Shown one piece after another: positions 37,961-60,121 of a stretch of 64,000 bases of DNA. Under the pieces are notes generated by a model. The model ran no database searches and was not told the DNA's origin. It worked only from the letters and a program-made list of their open reading frames with translations. Origin of the DNA: Octopus vulgaris. Lineage: Eukaryota. The position numbers and the translations under genes are program-made. How positions within the stretch are numbered: the stretch's first letter is position 1; each line of letters begins with the position of its first letter. Location of the stretch: contig OX597816.1 in assembly GCA_951406725.2 (NCBI GenBank), positions 43,896,001 through 43,960,000 on the forward strand, read 5' to 3'.

Positions 37961-38165
37961 TGTTGAATCCCTAGCTTCTGCACGCATTTTTTTTCTCTCC
38001 TTGTTTCTCTCCGTGTTTCTTTTCTGTGTATCTTTCTGTTGAAGAGCGTAGGCTCGAAACGTAAAGGACTCGTTTTATTTATACTCCTGAGCGCCATACT
38101 AATACAATTGTTTGTTTGTACTCCACCTGCCTTCGTCTTTTGTTTATTTTCATAAAGCTTCCCGT
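37961..38165 (+). mobile_element. Short HHR-bearing element, copy 1, in (TA)n
   Basis: TCTTT-CTGTTGAA-GAGC-GTAG-GCTC-GAAA-CGT-A-AAGGA at 38031-38068. Homologous to the copies at 50151, 52611 and 59936. Confidence 0.8.
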
Positions 38166-38227
38166 TATATATATATATATATATATATATATTAGATATA
38201 TATATATATATATATGCATACATATAT

Positions 38228-38650
38228 TCTTTTATTCCTTTACTTATTACAGTGATTCGACTGCGGCCAAGCTGGAGCACCGCCTTTAGTCAAACAGGTC
38301 CACACCGGGATTGATTCTTTGAAAGCGCAGTAATTATTCTATGGGTACGGTCTCTCGGACCGATAAGTTACAGGGAAAGAAACACACTAACATCGGGTGC
38401 AAAGAGATGGCGGGGTAGGGGAATAACGCACACATAAATATATACAGTTCCATGTGTCTGTATATATATATATGTGTGTGTGTGTGTCTATGCATGGGAC
38501 AGGCTTCTTTTAGTTTCCGTAACCATATCCACTCATATGGCTGTAGTCAGTCCAAGGCTATAGAAGAACGCAGTTGGCCAAGTTGCCACGCAGTGGGACT
38601 GAACCCAGGAGCATATAGTTGTAAAGAAAGATTCGAACCACACAGGCACG
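38228..38650 (-). mobile_element. SINE family B (diverged)
   Basis: GACTGCGGCCAAGCTGGAGCACCGCCTTTAGTC ... GCCACGCAGTGGGACTGAACCC. Confidence 0.8.
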
Positions 38651-39369
38651 CACTGCGCATATATCAGTATATATATATACAGATATGTATATATATATAT
38701 ATATATATATACATACAGATATATATATATACATACATAGAGATGTATATATATATATATGTATATATATACGTATGAATATATATGTAATTTTATATCT
38801 AAATATCTCCACATATATATATATATGCATACGTATATATATCTACATACATATATATATACATATGCATATATATATATATATATATATATATATATAT
38901 ACACATATGTTTACATGTGCATACATATACATATATATACATATCTACGTATATATATATATATGGATATATATATGTGTATATATACGTATATGTATGC
39001 ATATGTAAACATATGTATATATATGCATAAGTATATATATATATATATATATATATATATATAGATCAATAAATGGCGGGGGTTGTGTTGACCGCACGTG
39101 GAGAAATGATAAGCAAGCACTTTTACAATTTTTCCTTGCTTATATATATATATATATATATATATATATATATATATATGTATATTTATGTATATTTATA
39201 TACATTTATATATATATGTATATGTATATATATGTATATGTATATATATGTGTGTGTGTAGATATATATGTATGCATATATATATGTGGAGATGTTTATA
39301 GAAAAATCCATATATATTCATACGTATATATATATATATATATATATATATATATATATATATATATAT

Positions 39370-40562
39370 GTAATATATCTTGACTTTGCAAAAGCCTTTG
39401 ATAAAGTCGACCATGGTATGATCTGTCACAAACTGCGTGGTCTCGGCATAGGCGGGAAACTTGGAGAGTGGCTGCACAACTTCCTAAAAGACAGAAAACA
39501 GGCAGTTGTGAGCAATGGAGCCACCTCCAGGGAAACGCAAATAACAAGCGGTGTCCCACAGGGCACTGTCTTGGGGCCACTGATGTTCATAGTGGCCCTT
39601 TCAGACATGCCTTCAGTTGCTACGATGACCACCCTTGCTAGCTATGCAGATGACACAAAGGTCTCCCACGCAATACAGAACCCTGAAAATATTGCGCATC
39701 TGCAACATGAGCTGGACACAATATACAGGTGGGCTGAGGACAACAACATGCAGTTTAATGCAGGTAAGTTCCAGGCCCTGCGCTACTGGCACACAAAGGT
39801 AAATGACGTGAAGACTGGATACACTGGCCCAGGAAGAATTGCAATCCCTGAGTCAAAATCAGTGCGTGACCTGGGCATTGACATGAGCAATGATGCATCT
39901 TTCCAAATGCATATTGCTAATCTGGTGATAAAATGCAGACGGCTAGCTGGATGGATTCTCCGAACTTTCAGAACAAGAGAGAAGGAGACACTGATGGTTC
40001 TATGGAAAACATTTGTCCTCAGCCGCTTGGACTACTGCTCCCAACTTTGGTCACCACACAATATAAAACAAACAGCAGAACTCGAAGCAACTCAGAGAAG
40101 CTACACAAAGAAAATCGTCTCAATGCAAAATGTCAGCTACTGGGAAAGACTGAAGGTATTAAACCTCTTCTCCCTGGAGCGGAGGCGGGAAGAAGATATG
40201 CAGTAATATACATCTGGAAAATCCTGGAGGGTCTTGTCCCAAACTTTGGCATTCAAAGTTACTCCAACCGCAGAACAGGGCGCCGCTGCGTGGTGCCAAG
40301 GATTCCAACATCACCATCAAAATACAGGTCCAGATACTGCAACAGCTTGGGTTTCAGAGGACCACAGCTTTTCAACATCCTCCCTAAATGCCTGAGAGAC
40401 TTACATGGTGTGGATGTGGGTTTCTTTAAAACTAAACTGGATCTCTTCTTGTTGGGAGTCCCAGATGAACCTACCTCACGACAGGAGACACGGATGCGGG
40501 CAGCAGCATCGAACTCCCTTGTTGATCAAGTGCCACGTATCAGAGGTGGATTCACAAACTAG
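39370..40562 (+). pseudogene. LINE ORF2 reverse transcriptase C-terminal half, with one frameshift near 40190
   Basis: [83 protein letters not shown], then in the shifted frame RYAVIYIWKILEG...FNILP..FKTKLD. Confidence 0.9.
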
Positions 40563-40645
40563 TGTGGCTCATTCAGCGGTGGTGCCCCAGCATGGCCCCG
40601 GCCTTCGGGCTAAAACATTTTTTAAGGATTTAAGGATTTTAAGGA
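39370..40645 (+). mobile_element. 5'-truncated non-LTR retrotransposon (CR1/L2-group) inserted in (TA)n
   Basis: RT coding region, short 3' UTR and a (TTTAAGGA)x3 tail at 40621-40645. TA tracts on both sides. Confidence 0.9.
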
Positions 40646-57156: not shown

Positions 57157-57835
57157 CAGTGGTTGGCAAAATAATGGAAACACCTTAAAAATTTCAAACA
57201 AATTATATCAATACGGGGCAAGACCACCTTTGGCAGTAATTACAGTTTGAATTTTACGAGGTATGGACTCGTACAAAGTTTAAATTGTTTCCAAAGGAAT
57301 TTTTGTCCTTTATTCAGCTAAAACAGTCTCCAGTTCTTGTAGTAATATTGGTGGAGGATATCGACTCCTAAATTGTTATTCTAAAATGTACCATAAATGT
57401 TCAATAATATTGAGGTCTTCGGACTGTGGCGGCCAGATAAGATGTTCAACTTCACTAGAATATTCATCGTACCACTCAGTAACATCTTTAGCTGTGAACT
57501 GGTGCATTATTATCCTGAAAGATTGCGTTTCCCCCTGGAAATGGTTCCGCAACGATAGGCTGAATTTGATCAGATAAAATACTTAAATAGCCTTACCATT
57601 AATTCTGCCATGAAAGGAAACCATTGGGCTGGCGGATTTCCAAGATATAGCCTCACTCCCGATCATCACAGATCCACCTCCACGTTTAACAGTTGGGAGA
57701 AAGCAGTCCGGGTCAAAAGCAACACAATAATAAATCAAAAAACATAAAAATAAACAAGCCTTTGACGGTTTTATAGATATTTCAAAATTATGATGCTATG
57801 ATGCTAGGTGTTTCCATCATTTTGTCCAACTCCTG
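57157..57835 (-). mobile_element. Internally deleted Tc1-like transposon
   Basis: TA-flanked TIRs CAGTGGTTGGCAAAATAATGGAAACACC / GGTGTTTCCATCATTTTGTCCAACTCCTG. Minus-strand remnants PTVKRGGGSVMI, FQDNNAP and WPPQSEDLNIIEHLW. Confidence 0.9.
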
Positions 57836-57942
57836 TATATGTGTGTATATATATATATATATATATACAAGAAAAAAGCAACAAAAATGGATCAATGTTT
57901 CGGTACAATTGTTTCGTACGAAGACCACTTTTATTAAGGGTG

Positions 57943-57984
57943 AAAATATTGCAGCAAATACACGTGTATTTGCTGCAATATTTT
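57943..57984. repeat. Perfect 42-bp palindrome
   Basis: AAAATATTGCAGCAAATACAC|GTGTATTTGCTGCAATATTTT. Confidence 0.95.
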
Positions 57985-59935
57985 TCTTGTTTATAATCAC
58001 CCCGCATTATCTTATGGTTAATACCATATAGATTTCTGGTGCATCTAAGTTAAGTACCTTATTCATGTGAATTCAACAGAACTCACTTGAATCTTAATTG
58101 CTTTTACTAAATATATATATATATACAGGAACACCGCGTGCTACGGTAACACTACCTACCTGGAAAAGTGCTGTAATACAAAACAATTTCCATGCTGATT
58201 TACACGTCATAAAATGATAATGCGTTCCAATGGATAGTTTCATCAACGAAAGCACAAAATAAAACAGTCAACATAACCAATTTTATGAATGACAATAACA
58301 ATTTCTAATGATATGCAGTGCAATATTTATACCTTATAAACCGTTTGAAGTGACATCCGTTGGAGAATAAGCAAGATGAGTATGTACTTAGCACAATACG
58401 TGATGACTTCTGTCTGATGAGTGTTGATGCAATGAGACTTACAAGAAATATGAGAGACGCTATCTTCTATCGTATAGTTCATCATCATCATTGACATCTA
58501 TTTCAGTGGAGAACTTATCCAAAACTATTTGATGCCTCTTAACGCATCATTCCTTTGTACTGCAGCCCAGTGTAGGAACTGAATCCATTGCAAATTTTAT
58601 GCGACATTCATATTTACACTTGATTGTGAAAAAAAAACTTGCAGACCTCCCTCTATAAGTGACAACCCTTTAATAGTACTTTTTACAGTTAGCGTAAATG
58701 CAGTCGTTCGACTTTCCGTATTGTCATCTATATTCTCAGGTTGTTTTTATTCTAATTTCGACAGCTAATCGTCAGATAAATTTTCTCTATAGGGTACTAA
58801 CCACTCAACCGCATTATCTTCCATTGCCTTCTCAGTATCTTTCCGAATTTCATGCAGACTTTCTGCTCGTGGAAAACTTGTAAAATCACGGATAGTTTGT
58901 CATATATTTTTCGATCATTACATTCAAGAACCGTTATTTGTTAAGTGTTTCATTAGATGCATTAGCTTTATGAAAAAAATAGGGTCCGCGCAGTTGACGG
59001 AGTGACTTCTTGATCACTTGAACTTTTCTATCTATTATAACGTATTGACTCAAGTGTAGATTTTGCAATCTTCAAAGTTTTGAAAATGCAGATGTATTTT
59101 GTTTTCATTCTCTTATACCACACCTTTTTAAAGTAAGTTTACTCTCCAGTGATTCCCTTACGGGTTCTTTTCGCGCTACTAACTTTATACCTTCTTTCTA
59201 GACATCTTTCTAGGCATCGTAAATAAATCCAGTCGCACCAGTAATCTACACTTATCCGCAACAAATATATAGCAAATATATAGCAAAAGGCATGAAACAA
59301 AGAGAGAACTGTTTTGTAAGAGATAAAAATTTATTCTTACTCCTGTGGTTGTAGGGATGGAAACGAGAGTAAGAAATTATAGGAAGTACTGTATGATTAC
59401 AATTAGTTAAAGATTTACTACGTCCATGAGCACTCTAATCCTTGTAACTCTGACTAGAGCCACAAAACTGCACATACTCCCTATCCTTCTCTACAGTGTT
59501 GATATATAACATATGTAGATACAGACATTGCTATCATACTAATACTGTTATTGTTGTTGTCAGTCAGTGGCTGTATTGGTTTTCGTGCTGGTAAAAGTGA
59601 TGAAGGTGATAGTGGTAAGCGTGGTAATATTGTTCTTGTGTGTTGTTGCTGCTGTTAGTCTCAAGTCAATCCTCGTTGCTCTAAGGAAAGATTTATCATT
59701 AAGCATTTAAGACATGGAGAACATCACGTTTTCTCGTGTGATTGTTTGATCATTTACGTTAAAGCTATTTATCCTTTTCATACTATTGTTGCTGATATTT
59801 TTATTCATTAAGAACTACAGGCTTGATAATGACGGAAGGCTATTAGTCTTGCTGATTATGATTATGTTTGTGTTTATAGACAGTAGTGATATATATATAT
59901 ATATATATATATATATATATATATATATATATATA

Positions 59936-60121
59936 TGCACGCATTTTTTTCTCTCCTTGTTTCTCTCCGTGTTTCTTTTCTGTGTATCTTTCTGTTGAAG
60001 AGCGTAGGCTCGAAACGTAAAAGACTTGTTTTATTTCTATTCCTGAGCGCCATACTAATACAATTGGTTGTGTGTACTCCACCTGCCTTCGTCTTTTGTT
60101 TATTTTCGTAAGCTTCCCGTT
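59936..60121 (+). mobile_element. Short HHR-bearing element, copy 4, in (TA)n
   Basis: TCTTT-CTGTTGAA-GAGC-GTAG-GCTC-GAAA-CGT-A-AAAGA at 59987-60024. Nearly identical to copy 1. Confidence 0.8.

Follow-up and report, generated by a model that had tools for sequence, protein, structure and literature searches.

A 64,000-nucleotide (nt) stretch of the Octopus vulgaris genome (GenBank assembly GCA_951406725.2, contig OX597816.1, positions 43,896,001 to 43,960,000 of the forward strand; hereafter the window) carries four dispersed copies of a non-coding repeat of ~200 nt that adjoins TA microsatellites. Each copy, named c1 to c4 by position, contains the layout of a minimal type I hammerhead ribozyme of the kind found in Penelope-like elements (PLEs), with U in place of the usual A at core position 6 (U6 for A6). 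The copies lie where an earlier note on this DNA had placed them, all on the + strand (Table 1); with four copies, a shared strand is expected by chance one time in eight and carries no significance. No fifth copy was found in the window by blastn.

By blastn, c1 and c4 are 95% alike and c3 is 87–88% like these two. The copy c2, compared over the core and the downstream part, is 76–81% like the others. Counted from the predicted cut, the 3' ends lie at 102, 93, 95 and 102 nt in c1 to c4, and the 5' ends lie 75, 81, 64 and 56 nt before C3. The earlier description of 3' ends ~90–100 nt past the core beside TA repeats, with variable 5' ends, thus holds on measurement. A TA run of at least 8 nt abuts the 3' end of all four copies, against a background of 3.85% of positions, a count that is somewhat circular because copy boundaries were partly drawn at TA runs. 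The copy c4 is 5'-shortened by ~19 nt relative to c1. Upstream of its core, c3 has a ~15-nt deletion; among copies with its type of flank, it has the longest 5' leader. The 5' boundary of c2 is uncertain, with a CA repeat on the left and a short TA run on the right. Taken together, the fixed 3' ends, variable 5' ends and AT-rich or TA targets match those expected of PLE pseudo-long terminal repeats (pseudo-LTRs) or non-autonomous PLEs.

Table 1. Features of the repeat copies, in window positions
Feature	Position	Strand	Remarks
Copy c1	37961..38165	+	~205 nt; (CT)n(TA)n on one side, (TA)n on the other; both hammerhead stems whole
Minimal type I hammerhead layout in c1	38031..38068	+	sequence, pairing, family-wide letters, published consensus
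c1 stem I	38031-35/38064-68	+	one U.G pair from private G at 38066
c1 core, C3 to H17	38036-38063	+	by sequence
c1 core box	38036-42	+	U6 at 38039, free position 7 at 38040
c1 unpaired A between A9 and stem II	38043	+	
c1 stem II	38044-47/38052-55	+	GUAG loop
c1 GAAA	38056-59	+	
c1 palindrome ACGU (stem III)	38059-62	+	
c1 predicted cut	after 38063	+	inferred
Conserved U-rich 3' part (c1 example)	38096..38165	+	stops at TA run 102 nt past predicted cut
Copy c2	50151..50352	+	diverged second flank type (76-81%); core 50232-50259
Copy c3	52611..52797	+	TA runs on both sides; core 52675-52702
Copy c4	59936..60121	+	TA runs on both sides; core 59992-60019; both stems whole
c4 predicted cut	after 60019	+	inferred

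Hammerhead layout and its core

The published consensus of PLE minimal hammerheads (PMC4209133) runs from a U-rich flank through stem I, CUGANGAH, stem II with the G10.1–C11.1 pair, GAAA, a palindrome and NUH to an AU-rich flank, and the base between 9 and 10.1 is named there as a conserved trait. Set against CUGANGA, the octopus copies have C3, U4, G5, G8 and A9 in place and lack A6, with U6 in all four copies and position 7 reading U, C, C and U in c1 to c4. The GAAA box and the GUA triplet (U16.1, H17) are present in every copy and have no listed variants in the wider family. An unpaired base between 9 and 10.1, which is the A before stem II, and the palindromic ACGU stem III are likewise found in all four. 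Across stems I and II, 33 of 36 cells are paired, compared with 25–69% for slid controls. However, both stems are whole only in c1 and c4: two pairs are mismatched in c2, where G at 50251 gives G.G at the conserved 10.1–11.1 pair, and one in c3, where A at 52706 gives C.A in stem I.

Sequence, pairing and the published consensus therefore bear out the minimal type I register and the PLE-type architecture that had been proposed. Of the two core deviations claimed with them, U6 stands in all four copies; the extra A is part of the PLE consensus CUGANGAH, and so there is one deviation, not two. We do not class the motif as a canonical hammerhead because A6 is lacking and cleavage is only predicted. 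A register that takes UYGAAGA as the box was rejected, since it breaks stems I and II and would place the variable site at U4.

The layout is improbable by chance. A minimal-hammerhead descriptor with at most one change in CUGANGA, modelled on the published consensus although drawn up once the motif had been seen, matched none of 40,000 dinucleotide shuffles of c4. A minimal-hammerhead descriptor also gave three matches in the window against none in 100 window shuffles, and allowing one CUGANGA change gave five window sites, namely c1, c3, c4 and two canonical copies in an unrelated PLE. Rfam called no hammerhead family in c4, and its scan of the window was swamped by TA-repeat microRNA matches, with no hammerhead among the best 150 of 394 matches listed. 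This silence is uninformative for minimal motifs because Rfam also missed a canonical-core candidate at 48528.

The family in public contigs

Words from c4 are present in 21 of 24 listed public runs (9 studies, four organisms), none of them recorded as an RNA run; the run richest in them may be the window's own source. One run per organism was aligned to c1 at 80% likeness, which placed 22,065, 2,779, 9,188 and 5,478 contigs (39,510 in total) and yielded a variant-letter table of 28 rows at 24 places. Three of these (38066, 38071 and 38084) were dropped because c1 alone differs there, the other letter making up >97% of depth; at 38066, A accounts for 98–99.7% of aligned depth. Positions 37955–38002 and 38131–38172 were left out since the table is apparently blind there, an A/G difference between c1 and the other copies at 38152 being unlisted.

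On this basis, one place is variable in the 36-nt motif (38032–38067) and 20 are variable in 92 flank positions (Fisher p=0.0075). In the four window copies themselves, the invariant columns number 32 of 36 in the motif, 15 of 53 upstream and 50 of 97 downstream. The sole listed variable motif site is 38040, position 7, with A in 13–23%, C in 15–22% and U in the rest. No A6 form is listed at 38039 among the 39,510 contigs, with a detection limit of ~2–4% of depth (the smallest shares listed) and with the proviso that A6 relatives with other stems would escape the 80% alignment. U6 is thus the family state rather than decay. The two sequence-based expectations of the earlier note that could have failed at this step, a core more conserved than its flanks and a consensus other than the canonical CUGANGA, both survive.

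The same core occurs with other flank types. Loose ends before 38032 were found in 212, 55, 177 and 139 contigs of the four runs, and behind 38070 in 206, 50, 205 and 138; in each run, loose ends that resemble the flanks of c2 are attached to this core. Some loose ends carry U at position 17, and some carry G at position 7. A long head-to-tail joint, from the 3' part to a c3-type 5' leader, was seen in one contig (run X7) of the 39,510, in data whose short contigs would under-report such joints. Summed contig depth was not used for ranking parts of the element or for counting copies. As a rough inference, four copies in one 64-kb window extrapolate to ~10^5 copies in a 2.8-Gb genome, a size derived from an Octopus vulgaris repeat paper (PMC13282606). 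Collectively, the repeat is a high-copy family with the PLE-minimal hammerhead layout, U6 throughout, a free position 7 and fixed 3' ends at TA runs.

The word TTTCTGT, which stands just 5' of the core, is repeated 12–21 nt upstream (38014–38040, and in the same part of c2–c4). Loose ends in runs X8 and X9 suggest copies that have lost the part between the TTTCTGT repeats, which puts G at position 7 and alters the stems. U6 could have arisen by slippage between these repeats.

Predicted behaviour of the core and competing readings

When the motif is folded in isolation, stems I and II are kept and U6 pairs, as G5–U6 with A15.1–C15.2. Over the four states of position 7, the predicted probability of the G5–C15.2 pair is 0.44–0.98 with U6 against 0.01–0.10 with A6. 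Dimer pairing through the palindromic ACGU is predicted at -3.7 kcal/mol. Because the G5–U6 pairing hides the palindrome, and because stem I is rarely formed in the predicted ensemble of full units, U6 is predicted to act as a double brake. Measurements on other hammerheads point in the same direction. The natural A6C hammerhead runs at <0.1/min, a rate that is low in Mg2+ (PMC3088659), and it cuts well with Mn2+ (PMC7151607); in a full pairwise mutant scan, CUGA-turn mutants were all low except for a C3/G8 swap (PMC9901934). The U6 ribozyme is predicted to be strongly attenuated and still constrained in shape.

With slightly better than even confidence, we favour the reading that the repeat is a non-autonomous, solo pseudo-LTR-like passenger of a Penelope-like retrotransposon, with a U6 hammerhead predicted to be attenuated but shape-constrained. 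In such a cycle, the + strand transcript would be bound by the reverse transcriptase/GIY-YIG protein of some PLE, which would nick AT-rich or TA DNA and begin to reverse-transcribe ~100 nt beyond the site of hammerhead cutting. The conserved U-rich 3' part likely holds this start, by analogy with a PLE of the anole. The copying template would be uncut or re-joined RNA, because each genomic copy holds an intact motif with 56–81 nt upstream; with such a template, weak cutting would cost little and may even help. U6 would remove the A6 contacts, pair G5–U6 with A15.1–C15.2 and hide the palindrome needed for dimer cleavage, and could therefore act as a brake, so that more of the template stays intact. 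The other core bases may be kept by selection for slow dimer- or protein-assisted cleavage, or for recognition of the fold by the PLE protein. That the core is fixed across flank types only 76–81% alike, while position 7 is split into three states, suggests that its shape is still selected. The earlier note had proposed a PLE-mobilised family, either retrozyme-like or solo pseudo-LTR; the end geometry fits a PLE, whereas the retrozyme-like half is weak, the window having no tandem copies and the unit not running from cut to cut.

A bolder form of this proposal is that the family is the first natural A6U lineage, with perhaps ~10^5 copies and a presence in several octopus species, and that U6 is a selected switch. 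The zipped, non-cutting hairpin would serve as template and as docking site for the Penelope protein, and would cut only when dimerised, when refolded by protein or with Mn2+. We offer this extension tentatively and think it doubtful as a whole.

Several results weigh against the favoured reading. In full ~200-nt copies, the predicted probability of hammerhead stem I is at most 0.04, and such fold predictions ignore tertiary contacts. None of the nine stem pairs has changed on both sides among the four copies, although the stems are nearly invariant family-wide and so give no covariation signal either way. In a best-window permutation, the chance that some 36-nt stretch would be as invariant as the motif is p=0.09. 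Family-wide, the loop of stem II varies no more than the core does, a pattern that sequence-specific binding by a protein or shared descent would explain no less well than structure. Finally, the autonomous PLE ending in this repeat, which the earlier note had suggested looking for, was not found. The only PLE of the window (5852–12240) has an unrelated terminal repeat (scores of 13–17 against the octopus repeat, compared with shuffled means of 16–19) and was rejected as a partner for lack of sequence likeness. Likewise, five short family motifs had no related sequence in the Naiad/Chlamys/Hydra supplement of PMC8557442, in which line breaks can hide matches. The 3' ends of Octopus Naiad PLEs printed in the same source show no likeness to the repeat. 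Matches from a metagenome scan (two) and from viral scans (none and two) were set aside as chance, lying in unrelated sequence without the flanks or the full layout.

If U6 were instead a fully working variant, dimers of the RNA would cut efficiently, perhaps aided by Mn2+ or the PLE protein, and the family would spread like a non-LTR retrozyme through unit-length or circular RNA. Variation at position 7 only is what selection for catalysis would be expected to leave, and the U that also occurs at position 17 (a loose end at 38085, 17 contigs) is allowed by the NUH rule. Further, the ACGU palindrome can pair in a dimer as computed above, the natural A6C motif cuts well with Mn2+ and the X7 contig joins a 3' part to a 5' leader head to tail. 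However, the tandem arrays that the earlier note proposed to search for are missing from the window, where all four copies are solitary, and the X7 joint is the single long one in the survey, with the under-reporting mentioned above. In addition, the 5' end of the unit is not at the cut site, mutants of position 6 cleave slowly in Mg2+ (PMC3088659, PMC7151607, PMC9901934), U6 favours the closed hairpin in folding predictions, and the hammerheads of retrozymes are described as having canonical motifs and lying in tandem repeats (PMC7229834). We consider full activity unlikely. An equally unlikely explanation is that the motif is a dead fossil, in which A6U arose once in a founder and hitch-hiked, the conservation reflecting descent or plain sequence recognition and the fold being irrelevant. 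The absence of compensatory stem changes, the invariant stem II loop, the best-window result and the broken stems of two of the four copies all suit a fossil, as do the reports that cleavage is dispensable for PLE insertion in vitro (PMC11167929) and that Naiad PLEs spread without canonical hammerheads (PMC8557442). What a fossil accounts for poorly is a core common to flank types that are only 76–81% alike, in which the sole site with three common states is the free position 7, with no such diversification at 15 further positions of the core and stem III.

A last explanation, that the repeat is a short element of another kind (a minus-strand tRNA-type short interspersed nuclear element (SINE) with an A-rich tail, a miniature inverted-repeat transposable element (MITE) or a Helitron relic) and resembles a hammerhead by chance, is very improbable. 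The minus strand does end A-rich, a B-box-like word with two mismatches overlaps stem II and GAAA on both strands, and Rfam finds no hammerhead family in c4, although its failure on the candidate at 48528 deprives that silence of weight. However, c4 has no A-box and B-box pair at the proper spacing, whereas 156 of 2,000 shuffles do; ARAGORN finds no tRNA, and T runs that stop Pol III lie on the + strand of all four copies. Terminal inverted repeats expected of a MITE are absent (local scores of 3–5 between the 30-nt ends), and the hammerhead descriptor did not match any of the c4 shuffles.

The rejected window PLE is of interest in its own right. Its left end abuts a TA run and it looks like a recent insertion, with a 5'-truncated reverse transcriptase frame (7935–8375), a separate frame (8503–9843) and flanking inverted arms of ~2.1 kb that are 99–100% identical (5958–8031 and 10074–12146). 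The separate frame is presumably of GIY-YIG type by motif reading; Pfam gave no match for it. The terminal repeat of this PLE holds a canonical-core hammerhead (11945–12048 on +, 6159–6056 on -) with an unusually long stem II hairpin of ~85 nt, which length-limited descriptors would miss, and a palindromic AGCU stem III insert. Elsewhere, at 48523–48565 (+), lies one candidate hammerhead of type I that has the canonical box CUGAUGA and is unrelated to the U6 family. Its stem II is 4 bp long and opens with a U-A rather than a G-C pair; it also has the palindrome ACUAGU, a GUC triplet and a 5-bp stem I.

Other elements of the window include a long interspersed nuclear element (LINE)-type reverse transcriptase fragment in two frames that starts at a TA run (39262–40562, +; Pfam RVT_1, E 8e-19) and a DDE_3 transposase fragment (57379–57582, -; E 1.7e-05, below the curated cut-off). 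In the 114 of 217 non-repetitive frames that were scanned, Pfam gave only these reverse transcriptase and DDE fragments, plus two weak sub-threshold matches. A protein of the window is 93% identical, over 32% of its length, to an entry from Octopus sinensis, in keeping with an Octopus host. Another dispersed repeat family, recognised by shared translated words, lies at ~32456–32782 (-), ~38560–38640, ~46203–46615 (-), ~52830–52950 and ~63640–63954 (+), often beside microsatellites and with one copy directly after c3. About 1.1 kb of (TA)/(TATG)/(TACA) repeats with long imperfect palindromes (24790–25950) is the source of many of the false microRNA matches.

Comparison with known hammerheads and Penelope-like elements

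The role of hammerheads in PLEs is an open question, as cleavage is dispensable in vitro and some clades lack canonical motifs. An abundant family that has fixed a normally damaging core change and kept its other core bases, with only position 7 drifting, offers a natural experiment on whether such RNAs must cut or must fold. The open literature searched, with subscription papers, Repbase and Dfam outside its scope, contained neither a natural A6U hammerhead nor this repeat family, although the family may be listed as an unclassified SINE in the Octopus vulgaris repeat paper (PMC13282606). Within that literature, what is new is U6 as the state of an entire family, across species and in very many copies; the hammerhead class itself is already known and the extra A is ordinary.

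The closest relatives in layout are the metazoan PLE minimal type I hammerheads (Cervera and De la Pena 2014, PMC4209133), whose consensus features the octopus repeat fits in all respects except A6. The two share a U-rich 5' flank, a stem I of 4–5 bp, GAAA-CG-UH, an AU-rich 3' flank and a mostly dispersed, single-copy arrangement. An Acropora Neptune example has the same sizes of stem II (4-bp) and loop (4-nt), and a Xenopus family has the same GUA triplet. However, all 56 listed representatives have A6, as their descriptor required, and they are motifs of PLEs, whereas the octopus family has U6 and its PLE link is one that we infer. As the earlier note anticipated, surveys based on CUGANGA can thus overlook a hammerhead-shaped repeat that ranks among the commoner ones in an animal genome.

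The 3' end geometry is best compared with PAc, a Poseidon PLE of the anole (Frangieh et al. 2024, PMC11167929). Reverse transcription of PAc starts 85–92 nt past the hammerhead cut (111–118 minus 26), and its genomic 3' ends lie at a fixed distance of 85–92 nt past the cut, against 93–102 nt in the octopus repeat. Both have AT-rich targets and an intact hammerhead within integrated copies. In the anole PLE, the template is mainly uncut RNA, and cutting by the hammerhead requires the PLE protein. Insertion in vitro does not depend on cleavage, dead hammerheads inserting no less well than active ones. PAc is an autonomous element whose core is canonical and whose open reading frame (ORF) begins in stem II; the octopus repeat, in contrast, has no ORF and carries U6. 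Octopus Naiad PLEs (Craig et al. 2021, PMC8557442) resemble the repeat in their preference for insertion at (TA)n, and non-canonical or partial hammerhead cores were noted in them. A TA bias is reported there for both Neptune and Naiad PLEs.

Metazoan non-LTR retrozymes (PMC7229834; bioRxiv 10.64898/2026.07.22.740005) are also short non-coding hammerhead repeats, are thought to depend on PLEs and commonly occur as dispersed monomers. They are defined, however, by tandem units and by self-processed linear or circular RNA, whereas the octopus repeat has solitary copies in the window and a non-canonical core. For the core itself, the nearest precedent is the natural A6C hammerhead of phage Bcep176 (PMC3088659, PMC7151607), which, as in the octopus repeat, has a pyrimidine at position 6 of an otherwise complete core. 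There the base is C, in a single phage motif with measured activity, whereas here it is U, in a mass-amplified animal repeat with predicted activity; if any cleavage is measured, U6 would join the short list of natural core variants.

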